Shown: positions 1-26,100 of the stretch, piece by piece | How the letters are laid out: every line of letters begins with the position of its first letter | Position numbering within the stretch: the first letter of the stretch is position 1 | Assembly (NCBI GenBank): GCA_041576165.1 | Contig: JBFGLM010000017.1 | Location: 1-64,000 of the forward strand | From: Acidimicrobiia bacterium | GTDB taxonomy: Bacteria; Actinomycetota; Acidimicrobiia; Spongiisociales; Spongiisociaceae | Direction: 5' to 3' | Length of the DNA stretch: 64,000 bases | Notes under the pieces: generated by a model | Told to the model about the DNA's origin: nothing | What the model saw: only the letters and a program-made list of their open reading frames with translations | Databases searched by the model: none | Translations under genes and position numbers: made by a program

Positions 1-147
1 ACGATGAGCTCGCTGCTCGTGCTGGCGGGGGTCGATCAGTCGACTGCGTTCGCGGCCACCGTTGTCTTCAGGATGTTCTCGTTCTACATCCCTGCACTCC
101 AGGGATTCCCGGCGATGAAGTGGCTGGAGCGCAACGACTACCTGTGA
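1..147 (+). CDS. 3' end of YbhN / lysylphosphatidylglycerol synthase TM (flippase-like) membrane protein, partial
   Basis: Frame 1 reads ..SLLVLAGVDQSTAFAATVVFRMFSFYIPALQGFPAMKWLERNDYL*, resembling the C-terminal A..YR..TFWLP segment of this family. Confidence 0.65.
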   Translation, partial: TMSSLLVLAGVDQSTAFAATVVFRMFSFYIPALQGFPAMKWLERNDYL

Positions 148-766
148 CGGCACCGTTCGTCACCTGCATTACGCGCGCACGAGGCCGTGCCGCATGCCGG
201 TGAAGCCCGGAAGAGCTGGGGCACGAGCTGAGTGATGTAGCCGGCCATCACCGCACGGATTGGCCCACTTCGATGGCCGGGAACCGACGCCGGCGGCGAC
301 CATCCACACCAGAACCGATACTGCAGCTCCGGGCCACAGCCTGCCCAATGTGCGCGGAGCCCTGCTGCCACCAGCCAGCGCAACAGTCTGAGCCACCTGA
401 GCCGGCAACGAGCAAACATGCCTTGACGGCCGCGCCAACCGAGGACAACGCCTCACTCAGGTTCGGCCAGTCAACGGTGCCGCGGGGGTCACCACCGGGC
501 AGCCGGCTATCGAGCATTCGCCCATTCCGTGAGGTGCGGCACCCTCGTCGCCCGGCCAGGAGAGAACATCATCGGGCAGCAGCAAGAAGACCGCGCAAGG
601 ATCGGAATGCTTCACCGTGGGCCGTCACGACTGGCCATCCCCTTCACCCGGGTCCTCAAACACGCCAAGCACTCGGCCGGTGCAGAGCAGGGCGTATGGG
701 TCACGTCGGCCCGGGCTTCAAGAAGGTCTCGAGTGCCGCCGGGCTCAACGACAGGCTCAGCGGGGC

Positions 767-1078
767 TCAGCCGGCCAGGACTTTGGCTTTCTCGGCTGCG
801 AACTCCTCGTCGGTGAGGAAGCCCTGCTCCTTCAACGCCGCCAATCGCTCGAGCGCGGCAACCGTGTCATCCATCGATGGAGGTGCGGCTGCCGGTGGCG
901 GTGGGGCCGGAGCTGCGGCTGGCGGAGGTTGCTGAGCCGCGTACATTGCCTGCTGCTCCTGGGCCATCTTTCCTTGCTGTCGCCTGGCGACACGCCCGGA
1001 TACTGCTGTAGCGGTCCCGGCGACGACCGCGGTGCGGCCCATCGTCCTGACCATGCGGCCGGCCATTCTCCTCGGCAT
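767..1078 (-). CDS. SHOCT domain-containing protein
   Basis: RTAVVAGTATAVSGRVARRQ N-terminus, Pro/Ala linker, C-terminal LERLAALKEQGFLTDEEFAAEKAKVL SHOCT motif. Confidence 0.88.
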   Translation of the reverse strand: MPRRMAGRMVRTMGRTAVVAGTATAVSGRVARRQQGKMAQEQQAMYAAQQPPPAAAPAPPPPAAAPPSMDDTVAALERLAALKEQGFLTDEEFAAEKAKVLAG

Positions 1079-1096
1079 AGGATCTACCTTCCTCGA

Positions 1097-1537
1097 CTAC
1101 TCGACATTGGCGGTGACTTCCAGCGCCTCCAGAACGTCCTGGACTGGGATGCGTCCCGTGTCGGCCAGTTGTCCGCCGGATTCCAGGATGGCGGTGGCCA
1201 GAGGCGCGGCCCAGGTGTTCTCCCAGACCGCAAACAGCGCTGAGCTGCCCGGCTCGATGACCTCGCCGGCAGCCGCGATGTCTTCGTCAGACAACAGCTC
1301 GGTCAGGTCGTCCGAATACACGGAGATGCTCCCAATCTCGTCCTGATCCATCTCTGTGACTTCAAGCGCCTCGACCGATCCGTCTTCGCTTCTCTTGACG
1401 AAGACCAGATCGAGGAGGCGAATGATCCCGCGATCAGTGAGGTCCACGATGTTGGGAGCAATCTCGCCGTTGAAGCGGTTGCCTGGAAACTCAAAGATCG
1501 CGTAGTCGATCGGACCGAACTCGCGGATATCTCTCAT
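1097..1537 (-). CDS. DUF6325 (DUF1269-like) family protein
   Basis: GPIDYAIFEFPG, IIRLLDLVFV and PGSSALFAVWENTWAAP motifs; usual partner of SHOCT genes. Confidence 0.85.
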   Translation of the reverse strand: MRDIREFGPIDYAIFEFPGNRFNGEIAPNIVDLTDRGIIRLLDLVFVKRSEDGSVEALEVTEMDQDEIGSISVYSDDLTELLSDEDIAAAGEVIEPGSSALFAVWENTWAAPLATAILESGGQLADTGRIPVQDVLEALEVTANVE

Positions 1538-1597
1538 CGCGTCGTTCCTTCCTGCTGTCTGGTGGTGTGATCATTGCGCCGCGTTGCCGGCGTTCCA

Positions 1598-1614
1598 TCA
1601 CCCTGCCAGGGTGA
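1598..1614. promoter_or_regulatory. TCACCC-N5-GGGTGA operator, copy 1
   Basis: TCACCCtgccaGGGTGA about 60 bp upstream of the DUF6325 start. Confidence 0.75.
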
Positions 1615-1624
1615 TCGAGAACAC

Positions 1625-3379
1625 CTACAGCGGCTGGTGCAGTCGTCGGCCCGGCACTCGCACCCAGAAGCGGTACATCGAGCTGAAGATCTGGGGATGC
1701 CGCTGTTCGAGAAAATCCCAGTTTGACAGACTGCGAGCGGTCGGATCGTCCGGGAAAGTGCTGCGGTACAGGTCCCGCAGCCGGGGAGTCGCCAGCTCGA
1801 AGCCGAGGAACTCGAGGTCCAATGCTTTGATCGCTCGCTGAATGCGAGGCAGGTCAAACCGATCTTCATGGGCGTGGAAGAAAAGATCGCGACAACCGCT
1901 GATCGAATAGAAATCCGGTGCCCTCATAACGCGACGCGCTGGCGAGTCCATCGGCGAGCACCGCAGCGTCGACCGGAAGGCTCGAATTCCCGCGATGGTG
2001 GGTTCAAAGCCGCGTGCGGCGATAATTGCCTTCGCCGGGTCGAGGAACCTTCGACCGTGCGAGCTGTATAGCCCGAGTTTCATGAGACCGCCGGGGCGAA
2101 TCAAGCTTCGCAGCTCACCCCAGCCCTGCTCCGGGTCGGCCATGTGGTGCAGTACACCCATGCATTCGACGACATCGAAGGTCTCATCAAGTGCGGCCAA
2201 TTCGGCGATGTCGGCCTGGGCAAAGCAAATATTCTGGACGTCGAGGCGTTGCGCCTGGTAGGCGCCGTACGCAAGTGCCGCACGGCTCAGGTCAACGGCT
2301 AGGACCCGAGCGCCCGCGTAGCGCACAGCCGTCATGACGGCGTGTCGCCCGGTCCCGGCCCCGGCGATCAGGATTCGAGGCCGCTCCGCGTCAATGTCGT
2401 CCGCTATTGACGGCGCGGCGATGGCGTTGGCAACCGTCTCACCCAAGCGCCGTGCCCGGCGCGATCCCAGATGCCGCCAGCGCGGATAGGGTCGCTCCTC
2501 ATACTGAGCGCGGACAGCCCGGGAGACCGCGTCTGTGATCGCGGTCAACCGGGGCATCTGCTCGGCCTGCGCGCATAGGTCAGCGGGCTCGGCCAAATGC
2601 CGGCGGAACAGTTCTCGCGGTCGGTCGCCACTCGGAACGGTGACCGACTCCCACGAGTCCCGGAAGATCTCTCTCAGCGGTCGATACAACGCATAGATCA
2701 GGATCGGCGCATCACCCGGTTGCACTCGGTTCAGAATCAACCGCTCCAGTGCCGCCAGCTGGTCGACTTCCTCAGCGGTCTCCTGGAATACCCACTCGGT
2801 GAGGTGCATTTGAAGCCCAACCGCCCCCAGCAGCTCGGAAGCAACTCCTACCTGGCCGGTGCCGGTCACCGCCGCCTCGAGCCAGTCGCGGCGAAGGGCG
2901 ACGATCAGGGTTTCTACGGCTTCGCTGGCCAGCAGATAGTCCGACAGCAGTCGCATGATGAGCGGGCTCGAGAGCGCCACGCCAGCCGCAGCCCGGAGTT
3001 TGGGAGACAACCTGGCCCCGGATCTGAGCATGGCCAGCGCATCGGCCACGACCGGGGTTGCCTCCAACCGGTCCACGGCATAAGGCACCAAGCGCTCATG
3101 ATTCACGTGTTCGTCAGCTGCCAGTGCTGCCACTGCGTCGTCGATCGTTCCCGCCGGGTGGTCGGGCACGTCGATGAGCCCCCTGACCAATCGAGCCCGA
3201 GCCCGGTCATTGTTCGGGTCGGCCAGGTAAACCCGGGCAAGATCCGCCAACACCGACCGGTCGCTGCGGGCCCCGAGGGTCACGGGCGGTCTCGCCCGCC
3301 GTACCGGAGGTGCGGAAGCAGCGGTCGGTCGCTCGTCAGCTGCCGGGACCCGCATGCTCGGCCCCCGGACGGGCGACAC
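1625..3379 (-). CDS. Class I SAM-dependent methyltransferase with long N-terminal helical region
   Basis: VRAQYEERPYPRW, ILIAGAGTG SAM motif, FDVVECMGVLHHMADP, GLYS and CRDLFFHAHE motifs; start uncertain. Confidence 0.85.
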   Translation of the reverse strand: MSPVRGPSMRVPAADERPTAASAPPVRRARPPVTLGARSDRSVLADLARVYLADPNNDRARARLVRGLIDVPDHPAGTIDDAVAALAADEHVNHERLVPYAVDRLEATPVVADALAMLRSGARLSPKLRAAAGVALSSPLIMRLLSDYLLASEAVETLIVALRRDWLEAAVTGTGQVGVASELLGAVGLQMHLTEWVFQETAEEVDQLAALERLILNRVQPGDAPILIYALYRPLREIFRDSWESVTVPSGDRPRELFRRHLAEPADLCAQAEQMPRLTAITDAVSRAVRAQYEERPYPRWRHLGSRRARRLGETVANAIAAPSIADDIDAERPRILIAGAGTGRHAVMTAVRYAGARVLAVDLSRAALAYGAYQAQRLDVQNICFAQADIAELAALDETFDVVECMGVLHHMADPEQGWGELRSLIRPGGLMKLGLYSSHGRRFLDPAKAIIAARGFEPTIAGIRAFRSTLRCSPMDSPARRVMRAPDFYSISGCRDLFFHAHEDRFDLPRIQRAIKALDLEFLGFELATPRLRDLYRSTFPDDPTARSLSNWDFLEQRHPQIFSSMYRFWVRVPGRRLHQPL

Positions 3380-4331
3380 ATCGAAATCCCAGATGGCTCA
3401 TTCCGGTATCGACGTCCTGAGCCTGACGGGCTGCCGGCCGGTACCGCATGCAGTAGTTGTCGGCGCACAGGAACGAACCGCCCTTCAAGACCTTGCGGGG
3501 AACCCGGAACTGAGATCTGTGTGGGTTGTAGCTCGTCTCCTCCGTTCCGACTCTTGGCATCTGCGGCGTGCAGCAGCCGCCGCTCGGTGTGCGATCGAGG
3601 ACGAACCAGTCGTCGGTCCACTCCCAGACGTTGCCGGCCATGTCATACAGCCCGAAGCCGTTCGGCGGGAAGGATCCCACTGGAGCCGTTCGCTCGAAGC
3701 CGTCATCGAGCGTGTTCTGCCACGGAAACTCACCCTGCCACCAATTGGCCGGAGGCGAGCCGTTCAGGAGCTTCTCGTCACCCCAGGTGAACTCGGCTCC
3801 GTCTAAGCCGCCCCGGGCTGCCCGCTCCCACTCAACCTCGGAAGGGAGTGATTTACCTGCCCACCGGGCATATTCCGCAGCATCTTCGTGGGCGACGTGG
3901 ACTACGGGATGTTCCTCGAGCCCTTCAACGGAGCTCCCGGGCCCCTCTGGTTGCCACCAACTCGCTCCCGGCACCCACGACCACCAGTTGCCGTAGTCGC
4001 GCAGGTCAACGGGCCCGGGCGTTTTCGTGAACACCATCGAACCGGGGACGAGATTCTCGACTGGAGCTCCCGGGTACGTGGCGGGATCGAGCGGCCGCTC
4101 CGAAACGGTCACATAGCCGGTGTCCTCAACGAAGGTTGCGAAGTCGGCGTTGCGGACCTGGAACTGATCCATCCAGAAGCCCGCAACGTCCGCCCGTATG
4201 GCAGGAGCTTCCTCCGGATAGTGCCGATCCGAGCCCATGGTGTACGTGCCGCCCGGCACCCAGACCATGCCCGGTGCCGGTGGGAATCCCACCGGCACCA
4301 TCCGTTCGCAGGGAGCCCCGGTCGAAGTCAT
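3336..4331 (-). CDS. Formylglycine-generating enzyme (SUMF1/FGE family)
   Basis: HPVVHV, LPSEVEWERAARGG, NGFGLYDMAGNVWEW and KGGSFLCADNYCMRYRPAAR motifs; ATG at 4331 just after the sulfatase stop. Confidence 0.95.
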   Translation of the reverse strand: MTSTGAPCERMVPVGFPPAPGMVWVPGGTYTMGSDRHYPEEAPAIRADVAGFWMDQFQVRNADFATFVEDTGYVTVSERPLDPATYPGAPVENLVPGSMVFTKTPGPVDLRDYGNWWSWVPGASWWQPEGPGSSVEGLEEHPVVHVAHEDAAEYARWAGKSLPSEVEWERAARGGLDGAEFTWGDEKLLNGSPPANWWQGEFPWQNTLDDGFERTAPVGSFPPNGFGLYDMAGNVWEWTDDWFVLDRTPSGGCCTPQMPRVGTEETSYNPHRSQFRVPRKVLKGGSFLCADNYCMRYRPAARQAQDVDTGMSHLGFRCVARPGAEHAGPGS

Positions 4332-4345
4332 CTGGCACCTCTCGG

Positions 4346-5836
4346 CTAGGTACTGCCGACGCCGGCCAGCAGCTTGTCCATGACCTGATCGACCGTGAAG
4401 CTGGCCGCTTTCTGCCGGGGAGGGTACTTCTGGAAGGTCGCTAGGAACTGCCCTACCAGCATCTGGGCCGGTATCGCCAGGAATGCCCGGTCGATCACCC
4501 AATCCCAGTAGGTGTTCGACGTCTGGTCCGCGCGCTCGTACGGATCTGTGCGCAAGTTGAAGAACTTGGGGATCCTCAGCACCGTATAGGGTTCGAACCA
4601 CACTTGTAGCGTTCCGGCAGACCGCTGTTCCATGAAGACCAGCTTCCAGTTGTCGTAGCGAAACGCTGTCAGGTCTCCATCGTCGGAGAAGTAGAAGAAC
4701 TCGATACGCGGGCTCTTGTCGACCTCGCCCGTCAAGTAAGGCAGGATGTTGTAGCCATCGAGATGGACGGTGAAGCTCTTTCCATTTGCCTCATGCCCGT
4801 CGAGCAGCTTCTCCTTGACATGGGGATCGCCAGCCGCCGCCAAGAACGTGGGCAACCAGTCCATGTGGCTGACGATCTCGTTTGACACGACACCGGCCGG
4901 GATCCTGCCGGGCCAGCGCACAATGCAGGGCACGCGATACGCGCCTTCCCAGTTCGAGTTCTTCTCGTTGCGGTACGGCGTCATAGCGCCGTCCGGCCAA
5001 GTGTTCATGTGCGGACCGTTGTCAGTGCCATAGACAACGATTGTGTCCTCGGCGATGCCGAGGTCGTCGAGCTCGTCGAGGATCGCGCCGACGTGTTTGT
5101 CGTGTTCGACCATCGCGTCGTGGTAGTCGGACTGCCAGCGACCCGCCTGACCGCGTATCTCGTCCTTGATATGGGTACGGAAGTGCATGCCCGTCGTGTT
5201 GAACCACATGAAGAAGGGCCTGTTGGCGGCGTGGTTGCGTTGGACGAAATCGATGGCCGCGTCTCGCGTTTCTTCGTCGATCGTTTCCATGCGCTTCTTG
5301 GTCAATGGGCCGGTGTCCTCGATCCGGCCGTCCGAATAGGCGTGGATCACGCCGCGGGGCCCGAAGTTCTCCCGGAAATCGGGGTAGTCCGCGGCGGGAG
5401 GGTAGTCCTCGTGCTCTGGCTCCTCCTCGGCGTTCAGGTGGTACAGATTGCCGAAGAACTCATCGAATCCGTGATTCGATGGCAGGTGCTCGTCGCGATC
5501 GCCCAGATGGTTCTTTCCAAACTGCCCCGTAACGTAGCCGTGGGGTTTGAGCAACTCTGCGATGGTGGGGTCTTCCGGCTGGAGCCCGAGCTCGGCCCCA
5601 GGCATACCTACCTTCGACAGACCCGTCCGGAAGACGCTCTGGCCCGTGATGAACGCAGCTCGACCCGCCGTACAGCTCTGCTCACCGTAGTAGTCGGTGA
5701 ACCGCATTCCCTCGTCGGCCAGTCGATCGATGTTGGGCGTTGTGTAGCCCATGACGCCATCGCCATAACAGCTGAGGTTGGTCAATCCGATGTCGTCGCC
5801 CCAAATCACGACAATGTTTGGCTTTCCGTCCGGCAT
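4346..5836 (-). CDS. Arylsulfatase (Cys-type, CxAxR signature)
   Basis: KPNIVVIWGDDIG, SCTAGRAAFITG, GKNHLG and TDNG motifs. Confidence 0.95.
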   Translation of the reverse strand: MPDGKPNIVVIWGDDIGLTNLSCYGDGVMGYTTPNIDRLADEGMRFTDYYGEQSCTAGRAAFITGQSVFRTGLSKVGMPGAELGLQPEDPTIAELLKPHGYVTGQFGKNHLGDRDEHLPSNHGFDEFFGNLYHLNAEEEPEHEDYPPAADYPDFRENFGPRGVIHAYSDGRIEDTGPLTKKRMETIDEETRDAAIDFVQRNHAANRPFFMWFNTTGMHFRTHIKDEIRGQAGRWQSDYHDAMVEHDKHVGAILDELDDLGIAEDTIVVYGTDNGPHMNTWPDGAMTPYRNEKNSNWEGAYRVPCIVRWPGRIPAGVVSNEIVSHMDWLPTFLAAAGDPHVKEKLLDGHEANGKSFTVHLDGYNILPYLTGEVDKSPRIEFFYFSDDGDLTAFRYDNWKLVFMEQRSAGTLQVWFEPYTVLRIPKFFNLRTDPYERADQTSNTYWDWVIDRAFLAIPAQMLVGQFLATFQKYPPRQKAASFTVDQVMDKLLAGVGST

Positions 5837-5895
5837 GCAGTCCCTCCGTGATCGCGGTCAGATTGCGAGCGTCGCAACAAAAAAACGGCTTCTCA

Positions 5896-5912
5896 TCACC
5901 CAGGGGGGGTGA
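5896..5912. promoter_or_regulatory. TCACCC-N5-GGGTGA operator, copy 2
   Basis: TCACCCaggggGGGTGA about 60 bp upstream of the sulfatase start. Confidence 0.75.
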
Positions 5913-5957
5913 ACGGGCGGTGACAGCCCGGAGCCGGGCGACCGCCGGCTACCGGAA

Positions 5958-6650
5958 TCAAGCCTGTTCGGGGCGCACGGTCGGCTCGACCGCCTTGGGT
6001 GGCAAAAGCAGGTAGGCCCCGGTGAAGAAGCAGACTGCGCCGAGAAACGTGCCCGAGTTCACCAGCGTCAGGTTCAGGATCTCGCCGGTGGTCGGGAGCG
6101 TGAATGACGTGATAGCTGCGGCCATGAAGAAGATCGACCCGACGTAGTTCAGAGCCGAGATCCACCAATCGACGTCTTCGCGGCGGACGCACCAAACCCG
6201 CCCACAGACCAAGACCCATGCCAGATGGCTCGCGACCAGAAATGCGATCGAGCCGAACATGTCGGGCGCCCAAATGAGCCGGTTGGTCTGTTCGATGGAG
6301 AGGTTCTCCAACATTGCGTCGATCGTGTTGATGTTGAACAGAAGCGTTCCGACGAGTTGGACGAGCGTCGCCCACCACAGGATCCGATCGGGTTGCCAGG
6401 CCCAAAAACTGAATTGGTTTCGAGGGCCGGCGCCGGTCACCGGCTCGTTGATCACCTGGAGAAACTGGCTGTATCCGGCCGAGGTGAAGAAGACCGAACC
6501 GACGAAGAACGTTACCCCGACCGTGCCCGGATCAACGAGCTGCGCATAGGGCGGAAACGACCCGACAGCAAACAGCAGCGACCCGACCATGAACAGGGCG
6601 GAGACGCGCCAGCCCAGATCGCCCGGATTCCAAACAAGGCGCCAGCGCAT
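5958..6650 (-). CDS. YrhK-like multi-pass membrane protein
   Basis: About six hydrophobic segments with repeated GSxxF motifs (VGSLLF, VGSVFF, VGTLLF, FGSIAF, VGSIFF); ATG at 6650 after gadB. Confidence 0.7.
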   Translation of the reverse strand: MRWRLVWNPGDLGWRVSALFMVGSLLFAVGSFPPYAQLVDPGTVGVTFFVGSVFFTSAGYSQFLQVINEPVTGAGPRNQFSFWAWQPDRILWWATLVQLVGTLLFNINTIDAMLENLSIEQTNRLIWAPDMFGSIAFLVASHLAWVLVCGRVWCVRREDVDWWISALNYVGSIFFMAAAITSFTLPTTGEILNLTLVNSGTFLGAVCFFTGAYLLLPPKAVEPTVRPEQA

Positions 6651-6675
6651 CAGAGGGGCCTTTCCGGTCGCCGCT

Positions 6676-8046
6676 TCAGTGGGCGAATCCGCCCCGGCCG
6701 GGTGGGTGGGGTGGCGGGTACTTCTCGAGGTGCGCCACAGCATCACCCAAGGCGTCGAGGAGAGCATTGGCGAGGTCGAACCCGAATCCTTCTCGGACCA
6801 CGATGCGCAGCACGGCGACGTCGGTAGCGTTCTCCGGCATCGTGTAGGCCGGAACCTGCCATCCGCCGGTGCGCAGCTGGTCGGAAATGTGGAATACCGT
6901 GTAGGGCGCCGCATCCTTCATGCGGAACGACAGCACCGGTATCGCGGAGCCGTCGCTGACTATCTCGAACGGACCCATCTCGCCGATTCCAGCCGCCATG
7001 TGGGTGGCTACGTCACGCAGCGTCTCCATGATCCTCGTGTACCCCTCGCGGCCGAGGCGCACGAAGTTGTAGTACTGGCCCACGATCTGATTACCCGGCC
7101 GCGAGAAGTTAAGCGTGAAAGTCGGCATGTCGCCGCCCAGGTAGTTCACGTGGAACACGAGGTCTTCGGGTAGATCCTGCTCGGATCGCCAGATAACGAA
7201 ACCGATCCCCGGGTATGTGAGCCCGTACTTGTGACCAGAGACATTGATCGACTTGACCTGGGGCAACCGAAAATCCCATTCCAGGTCTGGATGAAGGAAC
7301 GGCGCTACGAACCCACCGCTTGCCGCGTCCACATGGATGGGGATGTCGAGTCCATGTGCCTCGTTGTACGCGACCACCCGATCGTGGATCTGGCCGATCG
7401 GCTCGAACTCCCCGGTGTAGGTAGTGCCCAGGATCGGGATTACCCCAATCGTGTTCTCGTCGACCCGCTGCATCACGTCGCCGGGATCAACCACGAAACG
7501 GTCATGCGCGACCGGCACGTACCGGCCTTCGACGTCCCAGTACTTGCAGAACTTCTCCCACACGACCTGCACATTCGACCCCATCACCATGTTGGGGCGA
7601 TCGGTGGACTTGCCCTCGGCTTCGCGGCGCGGGCGCCAGCGCCACTTCATGGCGAGCCCGCCCAGCATCACGGCCTCGCTCGATCCGATGGTCGACACAC
7701 CGATGGCGTCTCCGTCGGCCGGAGCATGAAACAAGTCTGCAACGATGTTGACGCACCGGCGCTCGATCTCGGCCGTCTGTGGATACTCGTCCTTGTCGAT
7801 CATGTTCTTGTCGAAGGTCTCTGCCATGAGGCGCTCTGCCTCCGGGTCCATCCAGGTGGTGACGAAGGTCGCCATGTTCAAACGCGAGCTGCCATCCAAC
7901 AAGAGCTCGTCGTGGATCAGGCGGTAGACAGCCTCGGGCGCGGACTCCGCATCAGGAAGTCGGTGTTTGGGTACGGGCGTCCGGCTGAGGCGGCCTGCGT
8001 AGGCCGGCGCGAGCGCAGAACTGTCGGCGACATGTTGGTGAACCAT
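6676..8046 (-). CDS. gadB: Glutamate decarboxylase (PLP-dependent)
   Basis: LNMATFVTTWM, NMIDKDEYPQT, HVDAASGGF, SINVSGHKYG (PLP Lys) and GWQVPAY motifs. Confidence 0.96.
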   Translation of the reverse strand: MVHQHVADSSALAPAYAGRLSRTPVPKHRLPDAESAPEAVYRLIHDELLLDGSSRLNMATFVTTWMDPEAERLMAETFDKNMIDKDEYPQTAEIERRCVNIVADLFHAPADGDAIGVSTIGSSEAVMLGGLAMKWRWRPRREAEGKSTDRPNMVMGSNVQVVWEKFCKYWDVEGRYVPVAHDRFVVDPGDVMQRVDENTIGVIPILGTTYTGEFEPIGQIHDRVVAYNEAHGLDIPIHVDAASGGFVAPFLHPDLEWDFRLPQVKSINVSGHKYGLTYPGIGFVIWRSEQDLPEDLVFHVNYLGGDMPTFTLNFSRPGNQIVGQYYNFVRLGREGYTRIMETLRDVATHMAAGIGEMGPFEIVSDGSAIPVLSFRMKDAAPYTVFHISDQLRTGGWQVPAYTMPENATDVAVLRIVVREGFGFDLANALLDALGDAVAHLEKYPPPHPPGRGGFAH

Positions 8047-8121
8047 TGGATCCTCCGAGAGGGCTTTGATCGGTACCGTCGTGGCGGAACGTCATCGCAC
8101 ACGATGACGCGAGTGGGCGAA

Positions 8122-8138
8122 TCACCCACCGTGGGTGA
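8122..8138. promoter_or_regulatory. TCACCC-N5-GGGTGA operator, copy 3
   Basis: TCACCCaccgtGGGTGA about 75 bp upstream of gadB. Confidence 0.75.
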
Positions 8139-8168
8139 ACAGGTCTGTCGCCGCGCCAAGTGGGCCGG

Positions 8169-10436
8169 TCAGACCAAGCCGAAACGGCGGGCGCGCTGGA
8201 CTGCCTCCGCCCGGCCCGAGGCACCCAGTTTCCGATAGATACGTGCAGTGTGCGTTTTGACGGTTTCGGGCGATATTCCGAGCTCGCGAGCGATCTCGCT
8301 GCGAGTCAGGTCTGTGAGCAGCAAGCGCAGTACATCGCGCTCACGGTCGCTCATTTCCTTCCAATCAGGCGCGCCGTCCGGCCCATGAACTCGCTCGGCT
8401 TGGATTTCCACGAGCTTCTGCACGAACCTCGGCTCCTGGAGCTCGTCCATTTGTCGTCGCGCTTCTTCGACCGCCTGAGCGGCTCGGCGGTGATCCCCGG
8501 CCCGGTTCGCGGCCTCGGCAATGCACAACGCCACGAAGACAGGTCCCTGCGCAAGGCGGGCGCGCTCTGCAACCCTGTTGACGATGGCGCAGGAGGCTGC
8601 AACGTCGCTATCGTCCCCCGTCCACAGGAGCACCAGAGCCCCGAGAATCGCACCGATTGGCAGTTCATCGACCCTGTCTGCTTGCGACAAGGAGTCTCTC
8701 GCCAGATGCTCCGCCTCTGCGATCTCACCCATCGCGAAACGCACCAGTGCCTCGATGCCTTCCGGAACCAACGCGGCGAACAAGGTCCCCGGACCCTGCT
8801 CGGCCCGGCGGACCAGTTCGAGGGCGCGCGGGTAATCAGCGAGGATGTATTGCGTAACAGCGGCCAGACCGAACGCTCGCCCCGGATCCTCACCCTCATG
8901 GCGGGGGGTCACGGCCGCCGTGAAGCCGGCGAGGTGTTCCATCTCCGCCGAGCATGCCTCCATCTCCTCGACGGTGCCTCCGGCCAGCAACGTGAACCAG
9001 TTCAGGATGAGACCACCCAGGCGAACGGCCTTCCCGGCTACCGTCGAGGTGTCTGCACCAAGCGCAACTTCTGTGAACCGGACTACCTGGGGCCATTCGC
9101 CGCTATTGGCCGCAGCGTCGCCAGCGAGGACTGCCAACGCGGGCACGCGTTCCAGTTCGGCCTCCGGCAGCGCAGTGATCCACGTGAGCACGGTGCGGAA
9201 GATCCCGTGCTGGATGAAGCCGTAACCGTGCTCGACGATCAGCTCCGCTGCGGTGCTCCAGTCGCCGGCGTCAAGGGAGTAGCGCACTGCCTCCGCGACG
9301 AGGCCGCGATCCCTGCACCATGCTGCGGCGCGCCGACGCAGGATGGCGCTGCGTCCAGGTTTTCTGGCCTCGAGTTCGGCCTGTAGCCACGAGGAGAAGA
9401 GGTCGTGGTATTCGTATACATCCGGTCGGTCCCGGCCAATGCGAGTGATGAAGAAACGGCGGCGGGCGATTTCATTCAACAGCAGAGTGGCATCCTCTGC
9501 GTCGATCACAGCGCGGCAGACGTCTGGGCTGAGCACGTGAAGGACCGAAGTGTCGAGGACGAAGTCCTGGAGCTGTGGCGGAATCTGGGCAAGTACCTCC
9601 TCGGCGAAGTACGCAGCGAGGTACCGATCTTGGCCCGAATAGCGGAGTAGGGCACCCTCCTGATCCACCGGTGACTCCTGGGCGGCGAGCCCCGCAAGGC
9701 ACAGCCCGGCTACCCACCCGGTCGCACGCTGATTCACCGTGCTCGTTACGTCAGGCATTGCATCAATCTCCATCCCTTCAACGAGCAACCGATGAGCCTC
9801 TTGATCGTCGAAACGGAGCTGGTCCGCCGAAATCATCCCCAATGAGAGGTTGGCACGCATGCGAGCGAGTCCGAGGGGCGGCTCCGATCGGGACCCGATG
9901 ATCCACCGCCACGAGGGAGGGAGCTCATCAAGGACGTGCGAACACAATTCCGTGACATCCGTGCCGGAGACCCGGTGGAAGTCATCGAGGATGGTGACGA
10001 CGGGCGCGCTGGAGGCAATCGAGGCCATCAACGCGGTAGCGATGACACGCGGTGATGCTCCGTCCGACGCTAGATCGGTTGCGTGGCGAGCCGCCTCGGG
10101 AGCGACGGCGCCTACCGACGCAACCAGATAGCGAATGAAAACGGCCGGGTCGCTGTCACCCTCATCCAGCCTGAGCCAAGACACCAAGTTGGGAGAGCCG
10201 TTCGCCCACTCCGCCAGCAGCGCAGATTTGCCATATCCCGCTGGTGAGACCACCACAGTCAGCCGTGCGTGGTGCTGTTCATCAAGGAGCGCCCGTACCC
10301 GTGGCCGCGAGACGTGGTGATCAGCGACTGGTGGTGTTAGCACCTTGGATCGCAGCAGGAGACCTTCGGTGCGGGCGCCTCCAGCCTTCGAACCTGCCTC
10401 GGTCTTGCTTTCGGTGCGGTCTCTTGTGTGGTGCAT
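8169..10436 (-). CDS. MalT-like ATP-dependent LuxR-family transcriptional activator
   Basis: LLRSKVLTPP, Walker A SPAGYGKS, ILDDFH, TGWVAGLCLA, YEYHDLF and a C-terminal LuxR HTH (SDRERDVL..ISPETVKTH..IYRKLG); start estimated. Confidence 0.92.
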   Translation of the reverse strand: MHHTRDRTESKTEAGSKAGGARTEGLLLRSKVLTPPVADHHVSRPRVRALLDEQHHARLTVVVSPAGYGKSALLAEWANGSPNLVSWLRLDEGDSDPAVFIRYLVASVGAVAPEAARHATDLASDGASPRVIATALMASIASSAPVVTILDDFHRVSGTDVTELCSHVLDELPPSWRWIIGSRSEPPLGLARMRANLSLGMISADQLRFDDQEAHRLLVEGMEIDAMPDVTSTVNQRATGWVAGLCLAGLAAQESPVDQEGALLRYSGQDRYLAAYFAEEVLAQIPPQLQDFVLDTSVLHVLSPDVCRAVIDAEDATLLLNEIARRRFFITRIGRDRPDVYEYHDLFSSWLQAELEARKPGRSAILRRRAAAWCRDRGLVAEAVRYSLDAGDWSTAAELIVEHGYGFIQHGIFRTVLTWITALPEAELERVPALAVLAGDAAANSGEWPQVVRFTEVALGADTSTVAGKAVRLGGLILNWFTLLAGGTVEEMEACSAEMEHLAGFTAAVTPRHEGEDPGRAFGLAAVTQYILADYPRALELVRRAEQGPGTLFAALVPEGIEALVRFAMGEIAEAEHLARDSLSQADRVDELPIGAILGALVLLWTGDDSDVAASCAIVNRVAERARLAQGPVFVALCIAEAANRAGDHRRAAQAVEEARRQMDELQEPRFVQKLVEIQAERVHGPDGAPDWKEMSDRERDVLRLLLTDLTRSEIARELGISPETVKTHTARIYRKLGASGRAEAVQRARRFGLV

Positions 10437-10669
10437 CCCCGAATTTCCAACTCTAGGTGGGAGGCCGCGGGCCGTGGATCCGCCCCGACGTCTATGCCTC
10501 CCTCTGTGGTCACCGCCCGCCGCGCGCTCAAGCCCAGCCGACAATGCATCACAGCCGTCCGACACGGTGTCGGAAACATCATCGCACATGCTCCCCGCTG
10601 CCCGCGCAGCTCGGAACGTCTGCGCCGCCGCGCGATTCGGCTCTGTGGGCCGCGCCCACGGACCACGTT

Positions 10670-10686
10670 TCACCTGCGGTGGGTGA
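10670..10686. promoter_or_regulatory. TCACCY-N5-GGGTGA operator, copy 4
   Basis: TCACCTgcggtGGGTGA in the divergent gap between the regulator and the TrkA-C gene; TCACCC half-site 24 bp further on. Confidence 0.65.
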
Positions 10687-10845
10687 AGTACATTCACCCG
10701 TTGGCCCGGAGGGTGGGAGCGTTCGCCGATCGGCCTGAGCAGTGATCGCCGTGCACTCAAACAGGCAGCACGCCGAGGGACGGTTGCGAGGGCGGGTCAG
10801 CCGCGATCGGCCAGAGGCTCAACACGGGACCGCAGAGGAGGTGAG

Positions 10846-11520
10846 GTGCCAGCAGTCCTCGGCATCATCGGGATCCTCGTGTTGTGGCGTTTCCTCGTCC
10901 TTACAGCCGGTGAGGTATTCATGCGTGCGGGTTTGCCGCCCGAGGCTGCCAGGTTCGAGGCCAGGTCGGCGCTCACCGGCTCCGGTTACACAACGTCCGA
11001 GTCCGAAATCGTGGTGAAGGATCCCGCGTCGCGCAGGGTCGTTTCGATCCTCTTTCTCGTCGGCTTCATCGGACCTGCCACCCTTCTCGGGCTGCTCGGT
11101 TTCGGTTTCTTACTGCCTTCGTCGAATCACCGGGCCTTTCGGCTGGCGGTCCTGCTTGGACTCCTCGCCGGCCTCGGCGTACTGGAGCGCACCGGATTCC
11201 TGACGCGTGTCGGACGGCGGCCTGCGCGCCTGGTCGCCGACCGTATTTCCCGAGCTCGGGTGGCTGATACCTGGATGGTGTTCGGCGAGTATGCGATCCT
11301 GTCGCTCCAGGTCGTTCCCGAAGGCCCGTTGGTCGAACGCTCGATCGGCGACCTGTTCGGCGGCGGCGATATCACCGTGCTGTCGATTTGGCGCAACCAG
11401 CAAGGGACGTCAAACCACATGGCCCGTCCACCCCCAGACGAACACACCAAAGCTGGCGACCACTTGATTCTGTTCGGTAGGTCGACTGATTTGGTTGATC
11501 TCAACGGAGATGCTGTTTGA
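10846..11520 (+). CDS. Membrane protein with channel-pore-like segment and C-terminal TrkA-C (RCK_C) domain
   Basis: ARFEARSALTGSGYTTSESE motif, TM helices and an RCK_C-like tail (ITVLSIWR..PPPDEHTKAGDHLILFG). Confidence 0.8.
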   Translation: MPAVLGIIGILVLWRFLVLTAGEVFMRAGLPPEAARFEARSALTGSGYTTSESEIVVKDPASRRVVSILFLVGFIGPATLLGLLGFGFLLPSSNHRAFRLAVLLGLLAGLGVLERTGFLTRVGRRPARLVADRISRARVADTWMVFGEYAILSLQVVPEGPLVERSIGDLFGGGDITVLSIWRNQQGTSNHMARPPPDEHTKAGDHLILFGRSTDLVDLNGDAV

Positions 11521-11605
11521 CTCGTCCATCATGACCTGGGCGGGAGGGCTGACGATCGGGACTGGCGCCCGACTGGCGCCATCGCCCTTCGGGCCGAGAT
11601 TTCGT

Positions 11606-11622
11606 TCACCCCCCACGGGTGA
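11606..11622. promoter_or_regulatory. TCACCC-N5-GGGTGA operator, copy 5
   Basis: TCACCCcccacGGGTGA about 55 bp upstream of the DUF1269 gene. Confidence 0.75.
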
Positions 11623-11676
11623 TCAGCGGTCTCTCCGAGCATGGTGGGATACCACGCACCAAGCTGAGGAGCGACC

Positions 11677-12168
11677 GTGGATCAGGACTTCGACCCCATC
11701 GAGCTCATTGCCGCCGTTTATAGCAGTCCCGCCGCCGCACAATCCATGCTCAATGAGCTGGTGCGGCTGCACCAACAGGATGTCATCGAGCTCATCGATG
11801 CAGCGGTTATGGAGCGGGACGGCGACGGAAAGCTGCACATCTCCGAGCGAGCGGAGCTCACCCCGGCCAAAGGGGCAAAGCGGGGCGCGTTGATCGGAGC
11901 CGCTCTCGGGATCATCTTTCCCCCATCGTTGCTGGCGACGACCGCCATTGGCGCGGCCGCAGGTGCATTGACGGGCAAGGCTACCGACCAGGGGCTGGAC
12001 AACAAGATGCTTGCGGATCTCGGTTCAGAGCTTCGACCGGGCACGTCGGCCATCATCGCCGTGGTGGACCACAAGTGGTACAGCACGATGGTGAACGCGC
12101 TCTCCGGCTACGACCGCATCCTCGCCAATACCCTGCATGCGGACGAGATTGCGAGCTTCGAACTCTGA
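11677..12168 (+). CDS. DUF1269 domain protein (glycine-zipper membrane protein)
   Basis: IDAAVMERDGDGKL, GALIGAALG..GAAAGALTG and LRPGTSAII motifs. Confidence 0.88.
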   Translation: MDQDFDPIELIAAVYSSPAAAQSMLNELVRLHQQDVIELIDAAVMERDGDGKLHISERAELTPAKGAKRGALIGAALGIIFPPSLLATTAIGAAAGALTGKATDQGLDNKMLADLGSELRPGTSAIIAVVDHKWYSTMVNALSGYDRILANTLHADEIASFEL

Positions 12169-12185
12169 GAAGTGGGCCCGGTGGC

Positions 12186-13064
12186 TCAGCCCACCGTTGC
12201 GGCGGAACGTTCCTTGCGGAACAGCACAAAGGCGAGGGTGAAGCCGCTGATCAGCATCCACAGTCCGTAGAGCGCCGGGATCACCGACATGGGCGGTGAG
12301 TCGAGCGAGACCAGAGCCACCGCTATTGCCAGTGCGGCATTCTGAATACCGGTCTCGATAGCGAGGGTGCCGGCTTGGACACGAGGCAGACCCGTCCAGG
12401 TAGCCAGTCCGTATCCACCCACCAGCGCTACCCCGTTCAGGAGGATCAGGGCGACCGCAAACTCCGGCCCTCGATCCAACACCAGCTCCCAGTTCTCGAT
12501 GAACAGTGCTCCGACGATGATGACCAGGACGGCGCCGGAGAAGACCTTGCCGGCCCGTTGCGTGCGAGTGGCGAAATTCGGCCGGCGCCATCGCACGCCC
12601 ATCCCAACAGCCAGCGGCACCACGGTGATGGTCGCAACCTCGAGCATCGTGCGGACAAAGGGGACCCTGACGTCGCCTGCGCCAGTGTCGAAAGCTTCCA
12701 CTGCCCACGACATGAGCAAAGGGATCGTGAGCCACGAAACTGTGTTGGAGAGAGCGGTCAGCGTGACGGAAAGGGCTCGATCGCCGTCGGCAACATGGAC
12801 GATCACGTTGGAGGTGGCGCCGCCGGGCGCAGCGGCCAGCAAGATGACGCTCACTGCAATCACGGGGTCCAGCGGCAGGGCGAACGCGATAGCAAAGCCG
12901 AGCAGGGGCAGCGCCAGTAGCTGGAGGCATAGCCCAACGATCACTGCCCGCGGGAACATGAGCGTCCGCTTGAAGTCGGACCAACTGAGGGTGAGCCCCA
13001 GCGTGACCATCATCAGGAACACCGCCAGCGGGAGCCCTACCTGAGAAAGAGCACTCTGTTCCAC
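12186..13064 (-). CDS. Bile acid:sodium symporter (BASS) family transporter
   Basis: MVTLGLTL, PGGATSN, GDRALSV and IETGIQNAALA motifs. Confidence 0.93.
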   Translation of the reverse strand: MEQSALSQVGLPLAVFLMMVTLGLTLSWSDFKRTLMFPRAVIVGLCLQLLALPLLGFAIAFALPLDPVIAVSVILLAAAPGGATSNVIVHVADGDRALSVTLTALSNTVSWLTIPLLMSWAVEAFDTGAGDVRVPFVRTMLEVATITVVPLAVGMGVRWRRPNFATRTQRAGKVFSGAVLVIIVGALFIENWELVLDRGPEFAVALILLNGVALVGGYGLATWTGLPRVQAGTLAIETGIQNAALAIAVALVSLDSPPMSVIPALYGLWMLISGFTLAFVLFRKERSAATVG

Positions 13065-13337
13065 CTGTACGATCTCCGCTCCGCAATGGCTCCCGAGAGA
13101 CCGGCGACGACAAGCCCAGATGAGGCACCAATCCGGCCAATGACGGCGGATATCTCGATCGGGCCACGGCGGGCGACCGGTGTCGCCTCATGCCTCTAAC
13201 AGTCCCTACGCGTTGCCAGCCCGGTCTCCGGATCAGAGCCCGGGGTGTCAGGGCACTTTACTCGTCTCACTCGTCGGACGCTGGACGGGGAGCGTGTGTC
13301 GGCGCGAACATGTCCCGATTTCGCCGCTATTCGCAGG

Positions 13338-14897
13338 CTAGGGCCGAAATCCACGTGTCCGAGGTCCAAGCATCTGGGGAAGCTTGCCGTACGCCAGCTC
13401 TGCCCACTCGCACAGGATCCGTCGGGTGTGGCGGGGGTCGATCACGTCTTCGATTCCGAATGATTCAGCAGTGCGCAGCGGCGAACGCACCGCCTCGAAT
13501 CGGTCTAACAGCTCCGCCCTGAGGGCCTCGGGATCGTCGGCCTCGGCCAGTGCCCGTTTGTAGGCGGCTTCGACGCCGCCTTCCAGCGGTAACGATCCCC
13601 AATCCCCACTGGGCCAGGCGACCCGCATCCTCGGCTGGGCGCAATCGACAAACGCGGCTCCTGCCACGCCGAATGTTCGACGTGTGATCACGGCGAAGTA
13701 CGGCACCGTCATCTGATAGAGCGCAGCGATCAAGGTGCCGCCCCGCCGAATGGTGGCTGCCGCCTCGGCGGCGGAGCCGATGGCGAAGCCGGGGTTGTCG
13801 ACCAGGCTGACAACCGGCAGGTGGAAGGTCTCGCACAGGTCGACCATCCGCCCCGCCTTCTCACAACCGTCGGCGGTGAGCGCCCCACCCCAATGCTTGG
13901 GGTTGTTTGCAATGACGCCGACCGGATGCCCGCCCAGGCGAGCGAGGCCCGCGACCACCGAGCGGCCCCACCGTTCACCGATCTCGAAAAAGCTGGTGCG
14001 GTCCACGATGTGGCCGATCACAGCCCGGACGTCGTAGATCCGGCGCCGGTTCCGAGGGATTATCGACAACAGCTCGTCGTCGGCTCGGTGAGGGTCGTCA
14101 TCAGTGGGGGCCACCGGCGGCATCTCCCACACGTTCGCGGGGAGGTAGGACAGAAACCGCCGAACCTGGTCGAAAGCCTCGGGCTCGGAGGCGGCGATGT
14201 TGTCGACGACGCCGTTGCCGCCGTGGACCTCCACCCCGCCCAGCTGGTTCTTGGTGACCGTCTCGTGGCTGGCGTACTCAACCAGCGGCGGTCCGGCCAC
14301 GAACACCTGGCCCAGCTCTTCCACCAATACGGTGAAGTGGCTCATCACCGCCCGGGCCGCCCCCAAACCGACCACCGGACCCAACGCCGCCGAGCAAACC
14401 GGCACCAGGTTGAGCAGTCGGGCCTGGACGTCGAAGCCGGGGAGCGGCGGCACGTACGTCTTCTGCTCCTCCAGATAGGTCGTGACCGATCCGCCGCCCG
14501 ACGAACCGTCGAGCAGGCGAACCATCGGGATCTGGAGCTCCTCGCTGAGGCTTTCGCCATACACCTGCTTTTCCCAGATCGAGGCGTCGGCGTGGCCCCC
14601 GCGGACGGTGAAGTCGTCGCCACCGACCATGACCGGACGGCCGTCGATCTGCCCCCGGCCGGCCACGTAGTTGGTGGGCTGATAGCCGGTGATCGCACCG
14701 TCGTCGTCGTAGGAGACTTTGGCGGTCAGAGCGCCGAATTCCTGGAACGTGCCGTCGTCGAGCACCGCGTCGACCCGTTCCCGCACGGTCAGCTTGCCGG
14801 CCTCCCGCTGGCGTCGGACCCGCTCTTCGCCTCCCAGCTCTTGCGCCAGGCGGCGGCGCTCCTCGATGTGATCGACTTCCTGGGACCAATCGCTCAT
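13338..14897 (-). CDS. Acyl-CoA carboxylase carboxyltransferase subunit
   Basis: GKLTVRER, DDFTVRGG, FVAGPP, LGGVEVH..NGVVD and LVDNPGF motifs. Confidence 0.93.
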   Translation of the reverse strand: MSDWSQEVDHIEERRRLAQELGGEERVRRQREAGKLTVRERVDAVLDDGTFQEFGALTAKVSYDDDGAITGYQPTNYVAGRGQIDGRPVMVGGDDFTVRGGHADASIWEKQVYGESLSEELQIPMVRLLDGSSGGGSVTTYLEEQKTYVPPLPGFDVQARLLNLVPVCSAALGPVVGLGAARAVMSHFTVLVEELGQVFVAGPPLVEYASHETVTKNQLGGVEVHGGNGVVDNIAASEPEAFDQVRRFLSYLPANVWEMPPVAPTDDDPHRADDELLSIIPRNRRRIYDVRAVIGHIVDRTSFFEIGERWGRSVVAGLARLGGHPVGVIANNPKHWGGALTADGCEKAGRMVDLCETFHLPVVSLVDNPGFAIGSAAEAAATIRRGGTLIAALYQMTVPYFAVITRRTFGVAGAAFVDCAQPRMRVAWPSGDWGSLPLEGGVEAAYKRALAEADDPEALRAELLDRFEAVRSPLRTAESFGIEDVIDPRHTRRILCEWAELAYGKLPQMLGPRTRGFRP

Positions 14898-25444: not shown

Positions 25445-26100
25445 TCAAGACGGTGCTGGTCGACGACCAGGCAATGGTGCGGGCCGGGTTCAAGATGATC
25501 CTGGGCGCAGAGTCAGACATCGAGGTGGTCTCCGAGGCCAACGACGGTCAAGAGGCTGTCGAGGTGGTCCGCCGCATGCGGCCCGATGTCGTCCTGATGG
25601 ACATCCGCATGCCCCGCAAAGACGGGATCGCAGCCACACGCGAGATCGTCGAGGCTCTCGGCGACCAAACCAAAGTGCTGGTGCTCACAACGTTCGACCT
25701 CGACGAGTACGTATATGACGCACTGCGGGCAGGCGCCAGCGGATTCTTGCTGAAGGATGCACCCCCGGAGGAGCTGGTTTCGGCGATCCGGGTGGTGGCG
25801 GGAGGCGACGCGCTGCTGGCTCCATCAATCACCAAGCGCCTGATCGAGGAGTTCACTCAGCGCCCCGAGACGTCGGATGGCCGGCTGGACGAGCTCACCG
25901 ATCGCGAGCTGGAAGTGCTGCGCGAGGTCGCGCGGGGGGCCACCAACGCCGAGATTGCCGAGAAGCTGTTCGTGAGCGAAACAACCGTCAAGACCCATGT
26001 GTCCCACGTCCTCACCAAGCTCGGCGTGCGGGATCGAGTGCAGGCCGTAGTGGTGGCCTACGAATCCGGATTGGTGCAACCGGGCGACGCCGACATCTGA
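25441..26100 (+). CDS. NarL/LuxR-family response regulator
   Basis: LVDDQ, DVVLMDIRMP, LTTFD, GASGFLLK and a LuxR HTH. Confidence 0.96.
   Translation: MIKTVLVDDQAMVRAGFKMILGAESDIEVVSEANDGQEAVEVVRRMRPDVVLMDIRMPRKDGIAATREIVEALGDQTKVLVLTTFDLDEYVYDALRAGASGFLLKDAPPEELVSAIRVVAGGDALLAPSITKRLIEEFTQRPETSDGRLDELTDRELEVLREVARGATNAEIAEKLFVSETTVKTHVSHVLTKLGVRDRVQAVVVAYESGLVQPGDADI

Follow-up and report, generated by a model that had tools for sequence, protein, structure and literature searches.

The first 64 kb of contig C17 (JBFGLM010000017.1), hereafter the window, come from an Acidimicrobiia genome (G000; 5.1 Mb in 161 contigs, 96.5% complete, 7.5% contamination). Between positions 767 and 12168 this DNA encodes a sulfatase, a formylglycine-generating enzyme (FGE), a methyltransferase, a glutamate decarboxylase, a MalT-like regulator of the STAND/LuxR type and several smaller proteins. 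Five copies of a single 17-bp palindrome, which we call the box, are interspersed among these genes. Here we ask what this box does and which protein reads it. An initial annotation of the window had proposed that the regulator activates five transcription units as one local programme, perhaps sulfate-ester use coupled to acid and ion homeostasis. The features concerned are listed below; all -10 elements and transcription starts are predictions.

767..1078, minus strand: SHOCT-domain protein, second gene of the box-1 unit (Pfam PF09851, E 1.5e-07)
1097..1537, minus strand: DUF6325 protein, first gene of the box-1 unit (Pfam PF19850, E 1.3e-12)
1570..1575, minus strand: predicted -10 element AATGAT of the box-1 promoter (offsets +23 to +28; predicted start about 1563)
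1598..1614, no strand: box 1, TCACCCTGCCAGGGTGA (pattern match)
1625..3379, minus strand: methyltransferase, third gene of the box-2 unit, domain at residues 330-435 (Methyltransf_25, E 1.8e-16)
3336..4601, minus strand: FGE, box-2 unit (PF03781, E 1.4e-76, domain from residue 109 of the open reading frame)
4346..5836, minus strand: sulfatase, first gene of the box-2 unit (Pfam PF00884, E 2.8e-54)
5868..5873, minus strand: predicted -10 element GACGCT of the box-2 promoter (predicted start about 5861)
5896..5912, no strand: box 2, TCACCCAGGGGGGGTGA (pattern match)
5958..6914, minus strand: YrhK-like membrane protein, second gene of the box-3 unit (PF14145, E 3.8e-04, below cut-off)
6676..8046, minus strand: glutamate decarboxylase, first gene of the box-3 unit (TIGR01788, 684 bits against a cut-off of 380; PF00282)
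8094..8099, minus strand: weaker -10-like element TGCGAT of the box-3 promoter, G instead of A at -11 and hence outside the ANNNT rule given below (predicted start about 8087)
8122..8138, no strand: box 3, TCACCCACCGTGGGTGA (pattern match)
8169..10436, minus strand: MalT-like STAND/LuxR regulator P0001, 755 aa, proposed activator (GerE, E 3.4e-17)
10670..10686, no strand: box 4, TCACCTGCGGTGGGTGA, one arm TCACCT (pattern match)
10709..10714, plus strand: predicted -10 element GAGGGT of the box-4 promoter facing the TrkA-C gene (predicted start about 10721, leader of about 125 nt)
10846..11520, plus strand: membrane protein with a weak TrkA-C domain, box-4 unit (PF02080, E 5.2e-05, below cut-off)
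11606..11622, no strand: box 5, TCACCCCCCACGGGTGA (pattern match)
11645..11650, plus strand: weaker -10-like element TGGGAT of the box-5 promoter, outside the ANNNT rule (predicted start about 11657)
11677..12168, plus strand: DUF1269 glycine-zipper membrane protein, box-5 unit (PF06897, E 3.5e-17)

The gene identities proposed by the initial annotation hold in searches against Pfam and NCBIfam, with weak assignments for the YrhK-like and TrkA-C proteins. The open reading frame (ORF) of the FGE overlaps the end of the sulfatase gene, so its true start probably lies downstream of 4601; that of the YrhK-like protein overlaps the end of the decarboxylase gene. Four boxes stand a short distance upstream of start codons, as had been noticed earlier, with 60 nt from box edge to codon for DUF6325, 59 nt for the sulfatase, 75 nt for the glutamate decarboxylase and 54 nt for DUF1269. 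Box 4 is located 159 nt before the start of the TrkA-C gene and 233 nt before that of the regulator gene. Two degenerate companion palindromes had also been described. The one at 11582 differs from the box at 6 of 12 specified positions and the one at 10694 at 4 of 12, which reduces the latter to a lone TCACCC half-site (10694-10699, offsets +8 to +13 after box 4, ahead of the predicted -10 element).

Frequency and surroundings of the box

The strict box was defined as TCACCYNNNNNRGGTGA (TCACCY-N5-RGGTGA), a palindrome of 17 bp with 6-bp arms and a 5-nt spacer. This pattern matches the window exactly five times, at 1598, 5896, 8122, 10670 and 11606. All five copies are intergenic according to the ORF list and a Pfam scan, and the remaining 52 kb of the window contain no further match. 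Both results confirm what had been found by eye. In 100 dinucleotide-preserving shuffles of the window the same pattern occurred 0.03 times on average and once at most; none of the shuffles reached five copies.

The entire genome contains 12 strict boxes, five in the window and seven on four other contigs, and all 12 stand before genes. The cluster of boxes in the window is real, but the proposed regulon is not confined to it; two of the outlying boxes lie beside a second MalT-like paralog. Both the spacing and the arms of the box are tightly restricted. The arrangement TCACCC-Nk-GGGTGA occurs 11 times at k = 5 and zero to four times at each other k between 0 and 15 (2 copies at k = 4). The 18 palindromic variants with a single base changed per arm occur zero to four times each, and TCATCC-N5-GGATGA is not found in G000. 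We also counted five copies of the everted arrangement GGGTGA-N5-TCACCC and four copies at k = 13. In a tally of 401 genomes of the class Acidimicrobiia, including two unpublished ones to which none of our conclusions is tied, at least one strict box was present in 116, and G000 had the highest count. The reversed control pattern AGTGGG-N5-CCCACT was found mostly zero times or once per genome; the 94 copies in G265 and nine in G131 represent a repeat family there. The word TCACCTTGGCAAGGTGA or its reverse complement appears once in each of three distant genomes (G269:C1:3133366, G353:C165:17841 and G057:C4:682499) and is probably not a box but a piece of some conserved gene or RNA.

Outside of the window, the box at C60:892 precedes a DUF7144 gene followed by genes for a small membrane LuxR protein (194 aa) and a dehydrogenase. 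On contig C92, the box at 7528 precedes genes for an unknown protein and an RDD protein, and that at 8912 precedes the gene for a Phage_holin_4_2-type membrane protein. Both adjoin a BrkB gene and the second MalT-like regulator, which is cut by the end of the contig. The boxes at C153:1168 and C153:2234 precede genes for two proteins of no family. Finally, those at C109:805 and C109:5144 stand before another sulfatase-FGE-methyltransferase operon and another DUF6325 gene.

This second copy provides an internal comparison. Positions 771-6709 of the window align with positions 1-6010 of the 7-kb contig C109 (L003) at 77.4% DNA identity over 6028 columns. The copy comprises YrhK-like, sulfatase, FGE, methyltransferase and DUF6325 genes and may be a paralog or may stem from a second strain in the bin. 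In both pairs of corresponding boxes all 12 arm bases are kept; the spacer has changed at five of five positions in box 1 and at two of five in box 2, and the non-coding DNA around the boxes has diverged. Conservation of the arms amid diverged DNA has the appearance of a natural footprint of the box.

Promoter geometry

We then turned to the position of the box relative to putative -10 elements. The set consisted of 39 strict boxes with enough flanking sequence, 12 from G000 and 27 from L009-L017 (loci from five other genomes and one contig of a metagenome-assembled genome, MAG), which gives 78 oriented flanks. These were scanned at offsets 5 to 59 for A-N3-T, corresponding to the conserved A at -11 and T at -7 of the -10 hexamer. 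Of the 78 flanks, 26 have an ANNNT motif that starts at +24 (A at +24, T at +28) and 8 have one at +25; at the other offsets the count is 0-6. A phased ANNNT accompanies 33 of the 39 boxes, and in 32 of these cases it occurs in a single orientation. In G000 it is present at 10 of 12 boxes, each time toward the adjacent gene. If the A is placed at -11, the box covers positions -51 to -35 (centre -43) and transcription is predicted to start 34 nt after the box. By this geometry we regard the boxes as parts of promoters, in the position predicted for a class II activator.

A similar position is known from class II activation of the LuxR type, where a dimer of a LuxR-family helix-turn-helix (HTH) domain occupies a lux-box palindrome centred near -42. 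Another LuxR-family activator, GadE from E. coli, controls gadA and gadBC-hdeD, which encode glutamate decarboxylase and small membrane proteins. Both parallels are resemblances only, as receptor domains, box sequences and lineages differ from the system described here.

Box 4 does lie between the regulator and the TrkA-C gene, as had been pointed out. The phased ANNNT is found on the TrkA-C side and none on the regulator side, so this box appears to belong to the TrkA-C promoter and lends no support to autoregulation. At six boxes the start codon of an ORF of at least 60 aa falls exactly at +35 or +37, that is, at the predicted transcript start (L004, C153:1168; L010, 2917; L013, 7375 and 7701; L015, 11336; L017, 5854), which suggests that these mRNAs may be leaderless. 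The 26 oriented promoters from G000 and L009-L017 share a further feature on the promoter side only, namely a G at -33 (24 of 26) and an A at -32 (16 of 26). This asymmetry could mean that the box extends further on one side or that the polymerase makes a contact there.

Imperfect copies of the box behave differently. Among near-matches in G000 (18 with one mismatch and 271 with two) the phased -10 element is not in excess and occurs at a background-like level; C92:8830, C109:6098 and C83:14972 are the sole possible extra sites among the mismatched words. The one-mismatch box at C92:8830, TCACCCGGCCTGGGTGG, has a phased -10 element toward an unknown gene of 123 aa and stands back to back with C92:8912, with which it would make a divergent promoter pair.

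The regulator and its recurrence beside boxes

The regulator P0001 contains recognizable Walker A (GYGKS) and Walker B (LDDFH) motifs, and residues G67, G69, K70 and D151 are invariant across 42 homologs. A phmmer comparison with E. coli MalT (chain 8bob_C) gave an E value of 8.9e-43 over residues 27-436. The predicted structure (mean pLDDT 86.6, pTM 0.79) finds its best Foldseek match in the same chain, with a target TM score of 0.90 and a root-mean-square deviation (rmsd) of 2.6 over 407 columns, and the model contains the winged-helix and arm modules that follow the NTPase domain in MalT. Residues 362-683 are modelled entirely as helical hairpins or repeats. The second-best match is a STAND-TPR protein (6mfv_A, 699 columns) with a high rmsd of 9.5. 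The C-terminus forms a GerE/LuxR HTH domain (PF00196, E 2.8e-17, residues 695-749). With the MalT equivalog model NF003420 the score is 286 bits, below the cut-off of 537, and the match covers residues 27-451 only; the protein has 755 aa compared to 903 model positions. Judged by these comparisons, P0001 is MalT-like, though not MalT proper. It is 28% identical to the paralog on C92, the other box-linked regulator of G000, and this paralog may share the boxes with the window regulator or split them with it. A further GerE-domain protein, which has the size of a response regulator (220-aa frame), is encoded at 25891-26058 of the window, 14 kb from the cluster.

A search of the genome contigs with the single regulator sequence returned no relative. 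Searching the same contigs with an alignment of four sequences produced one locus, L009, on an Acidimicrobiia MAG contig, which is the nearest named relative. The ortholog at this locus is 66% identical, and behind it come five exact boxes, which precede methyltransferase, DUF6325-SHOCT and DUF1269 genes. The DUF6325 protein is 91% identical to that of the window and is likewise encoded behind a box, the SHOCT protein (80% identical) comes after DUF6325, and the methyltransferase gene comes after the regulator gene. Because this orthologous locus has neither a sulfatase nor a glutamate decarboxylase gene, we take both of these to be variable cargo; sulfate-ester use may then be a lineage-specific addition. 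Some details of these proteins are recorded here for completeness. The N-terminal segment of about 320 residues of the methyltransferase belongs to no known family but is conserved in L009, where the methyltransferase match (12436-13970 overall) is in two pieces, 12436-13659 and 13665-13970, and may represent a frameshift or two genes. A search of the ESM Atlas with DUF6325 returned its own family only.

Clustered boxes were found again in five genomes from five other families of the class. The genomes G269, G353 and G057 each have just one match to the regulator's NTPase part, and it falls within the box cluster or next to it; G057 has one further match elsewhere, to the HTH only. All three full MalT-like matches of G308 are on the contig that holds five of its eight boxes. 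In G290, two of about five MalT-like matches flank two boxes, and no regulator was found in the 26 kb examined at a second cluster of four boxes. A MalT-like regulator is also present inside the box clusters of L009, L011, L012, L015, L016 and L017.

The cargo of these clusters is recurrent as well. The enzymes include sulfatases accompanied by an FGE or a radical-SAM/SPASM maturase, glutamate decarboxylase with a YrhK-like protein, and PPK2. DUF6325-SHOCT, DUF7144, DUF1269, PLDc_N and DUF308 proteins, parts of ion channels and a SulP transporter make up the remainder. DUF1269 genes stand behind boxes in L009 and L010, DUF308 and PPK2 genes occur in L011, and a YrhK-like protein 45% identical to that of the window adjoins the decarboxylase in L016. 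Two variations on the sulfatase theme were noted. In L015 (3606-6539) a 977-aa sulfatase carries a DUF1269 domain as an N-terminal fusion, and in L013 (5753-7024) and L015 (6633-7889) the FGE is replaced by a radical-SAM/SPASM protein of the anaerobic sulfatase maturase type.

Beyond the class, the box was detected in 70 of 301 genomes sampled from the phylum. One family (f68) has it in all 13 of its genomes, with 8 to 19 copies in G575, G487, G500, G513 and G586, counts equal to or above that of G000. Regulator and boxes are co-located in three of five genomes checked outside the class (G586:C143, G688:C138, and G487:C177 and C358). Elsewhere in the class, boxes of the TCATCC type share clusters with those of the TCACCC type (G308:C18 and G254:C268). 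At G308:C18 27650/27698 and G254:C268 16643/16673 a distance of 30-48 bp separates the two types within one intergenic region, and these pairs may serve two paralogous regulators as tandem sites.

Precedents, competing explanations and meaning

The closest precedent is the MalT regulon of Actinoplanes sp. SE50/110, described by Droste et al. in 2020 (PMC7567727). Deletion or overexpression of malT (ACSP50_3915) changes 40/51 genes of the region. Genes carrying the palindrome TCATCC-5nt-GGATGA decrease in expression upon loss of MalT and increase upon overexpression, which identifies MalT as an activator. Seventeen mapped transcription starts are located 34.4 +/- 1.0 nt downstream of this palindrome, which overlaps the -35 region. 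Relatives of Actinoplanes retain the box in a reshuffled gene context and include ppk2. Table S3 of the same report names a SHOCT gene, three DUF1269 genes, two BrkB/YihY-like genes, a DUF308 gene and two MalT-like LuxR genes. Our system shares many features with this precedent (PMC7567727). In both cases a MalT-like LuxR gene lies within the cluster with a second paralog adjoining, the palindrome has 6-bp arms and a 5-nt spacer and overlaps the -35 region (here by prediction), and transcription starts about 34 nt from the box's 3' end (measured there, predicted here). Both regulons also consist of many single-gene or short units with a box each, in a patchy gene order that is rearranged across genomes, and they share SHOCT, DUF1269, BrkB/YihY and DUF308 proteins as well as the PPK2 of the relatives. 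The difference is one base per arm, TCATCC there and TCACCC here, in another class of bacteria. Sulfatases with an FGE or radical-SAM maturase, glutamate decarboxylase-YrhK, DUF6325 and DUF7144 are cargo here, unlike in the gene sets presented for Actinoplanes, and the arginine deiminase, amylase and glucosidase genes of Actinoplanes are absent from the cargo here.

Two more distant systems are instructive. Al-Bassam et al. 2014 (PMC4125116) give the BldM Group I box of Streptomyces venezuelae as TCACcCgnncGgGTGA, footprinted by BldM. The inverted arms TCACCC/GGGTGA are the same as in our box and are bound there by a homodimer of a GerE-type HTH protein, which implies that a GerE dimer is able to read these arms. 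The BldM box differs by its 4-nt spacer (16 bp in total), by an orphan response regulator as the binding protein and by developmental genes as targets. The MalT boxes of E. coli, as summarized in the discussion of PMC7567727, are asymmetric decamers in repeats with the core GGA(T/G)GA that abut the -35 element, and MalT acts from there as an activator. P0001 resembles this MalT in the fold and sequence of the NTPase and arm domains and in the GerE C-terminus, and GGGTGA is one base away from the E. coli core. The E. coli boxes do not form a 17-bp palindrome as ours do, and no maltose genes are among the targets here. A literature search found no paper that pairs a TCACCC-N5-GGGTGA box with a MalT-like regulator. 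The same search found none on DUF6325 and, judged by title and the start of the abstract, none relevant on DUF1269.

From these observations we consider it likely that TCACCC-N5-GGGTGA is the class II activator box of MalT-like STAND/LuxR regulators (LAL regulators), because of the -10 phasing, the conserved arms in C109, the regulator-linked clusters and the precedent of a nearly identical box in Actinoplanes. The regulator at 8169-10436 would be the most likely activator of the boxes in the window. According to this model, an ATP- and ligand-activated oligomer of the regulator would place two GerE HTH domains on the two arms, with the promoter-proximal arm standing in for the -35 element. 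RNA polymerase would thereby be recruited to a weak nANNNT -10 element that lacks a -35 consensus. Five units of the window could be activated in this manner: DUF6325-SHOCT, sulfatase-FGE-methyltransferase, glutamate decarboxylase-YrhK-like, TrkA-C and DUF1269. The sequences show the boxes themselves, with their excess, strict spacing, phased -10 elements, conservation and linkage to MalT-like regulators. Binding, activation, transcription starts and the activating signal are inferred in this model. The core of what the initial annotation had proposed, an adjacent MalT-like regulator acting on several co-regulated units, now appears well supported by indirect evidence. The same evidence supports the expectation that SHOCT, DUF6325 and DUF1269 proteins would gain a regulatory context.

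A different GerE protein, either a BldM-like orphan response regulator or the small membrane LuxR protein of C60, might bind the box instead, with the MalT-like genes as no more than frequent members of the regulon. We assign a small though appreciable probability to this alternative. BldM has been footprinted on the same arms (PMC4125116), and G000 encodes 30 GerE-domain proteins, most of them the size of response regulators. The 194-aa LuxR protein is encoded by the second gene behind the box C60:892, and in L011, L012 and L015 a phased box drives an operon whose second gene, by our own choice of ORFs, encodes a MalT-like or large LuxR regulator. Co-location can thus also mean that the regulator genes are targets. 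However, the BldM spacer has 4 nt, a spacing found twice in G000 compared to 11 copies with 5 nt, and the MalT box of Actinoplanes, for which PMC7567727 presents genetic evidence, has the same 5-nt spacer and a matching distance to the start. In tblastn searches of L009-L017 no response regulator recurs near the clusters, and the small LuxR protein matches once, in L017. Genomes with a single MalT-like gene have that gene in the box cluster. It is the strict 5-nt spacing together with the linkage to the regulator that makes another GerE protein the less likely binder. That the palindrome serves as the operator of a repressor, which covers the -35 region and switches the units off, seems to us quite improbable. 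Repressors do act at this position and palindromic operators are common, but the promoters do not offer a -35 consensus of their own (a sigma-70 consensus scan of 700-12300 returned no promoter). The distance from the proximal arm to the -10 element is fixed, as expected if the bound protein substitutes for -35 contacts, and the homologous box in Actinoplanes mediates activation according to the expression data of PMC7567727. Least credible of all is the idea that the palindromes act in RNA, as hairpins at terminators or processing sites, or that they belong to a short repeat dispersed without any role in regulation. Four of the five copies in the window do lie just 3' of a gene on the same strand, and a G+C-rich stem of 6 bp with a 5-nt loop could form. 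Yet a terminator scan called none of the five terminator-like, because no run of T follows, and an Rfam search of 1-13000 gave no match. Between the invariant arms the putative loops are free to vary, the phased -10 element has a direction and faces the next gene, and boxes also stand before divergent genes (C92:8912).

Activation by a MalT-like regulator has to be weighed against several observations that do not fit easily. Six of the 39 boxes are without a phased element. Among eight listed holders of this stretch in sequencing archives, none is recorded as RNA. The window boxes at 8122 and 11606 are followed by TGCGAT and TGGGAT, which lack the A of the -10 rule. The TPR_MalT domain (PF17874) was undetected in the putative sensor region of P0001 and in P0005 and P0006 at E values up to 1. 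No box lies near a third MalT-like paralog of G000, on C77, where the closest word has two mismatches. A search of 24 relatives from the same family gave no match to the regulator at E 1e-20. An alignment of HTH domains (30 GerE proteins of G000 and nine foreign ones) is conserved at the family level only, and the specificity residues do not single out the MalT-like proteins. An attempt to trace covariation between recognition helix and box type foundered on this and on the mixture of TCATCC and TCACCC boxes in the same clusters. Finally, the expected recurrence of boxes upstream of orthologous genes, evident in L009 for DUF6325-SHOCT, DUF1269 and the methyltransferase, does not extend to most DUF6325 genes in other genomes of the class. 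A box with at most two mismatches lies within 300 bp upstream of only 9 of 30 such genes (two exact, six with at most one mismatch), compared to 0 of 30 in a downstream control.

What the programme accomplishes is a matter of conjecture. Our guess is that it supplies proteins for the homeostasis of membrane, ions and pH during stress or quiescence, with DUF1269, SHOCT, DUF6325, DUF7144, BrkB and DUF308 as a core common across Actinomycetota, and with sulfatase plus maturase and glutamate decarboxylase as lineage-specific enzymes. The coupling of sulfate-ester use to acid and ion homeostasis is speculation. A broader reading, which we put forward tentatively and with less than even confidence, is a regulon spanning the phylum, in which a MalT-type STAND protein reads TCA(C/T)CC-N5-GG(G/A)TGA at the -35 position and activates a mobile set of membrane and stress genes (DUF1269, SHOCT, DUF6325, DUF7144, BrkB, DUF308, PLDc_N, and parts of potassium and mechanosensitive channels). 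Each lineage would add enzymes of its own to this set, which are arginine deiminase and amylases in Actinoplanes and, in our case, glutamate decarboxylase and formylglycine sulfatases together with their maturases. If this reading is true, the ligand would signal a general condition, for example energy or envelope stress or the onset of quiescence, and not a sugar.

The principle of such a regulon is already published for Actinoplanes; new is its extension to another class and to further families of Actinomycetota. The MalT-box regulon thus appears not to be peculiar to Micromonosporaceae but to recur, one base apart per arm, in other lineages. The near-perfect conservation of the arms and the exact phasing of the -10 element make these promoters easy to predict genome-wide and testable in a heterologous host. 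For uncultured Acidimicrobiia, this provides a testable regulatory context for DUF6325, SHOCT, DUF1269, DUF7144 and the YrhK-like protein, and a regulon spanning the phylum would offer the first functional handle on these DUFs across Actinomycetota.

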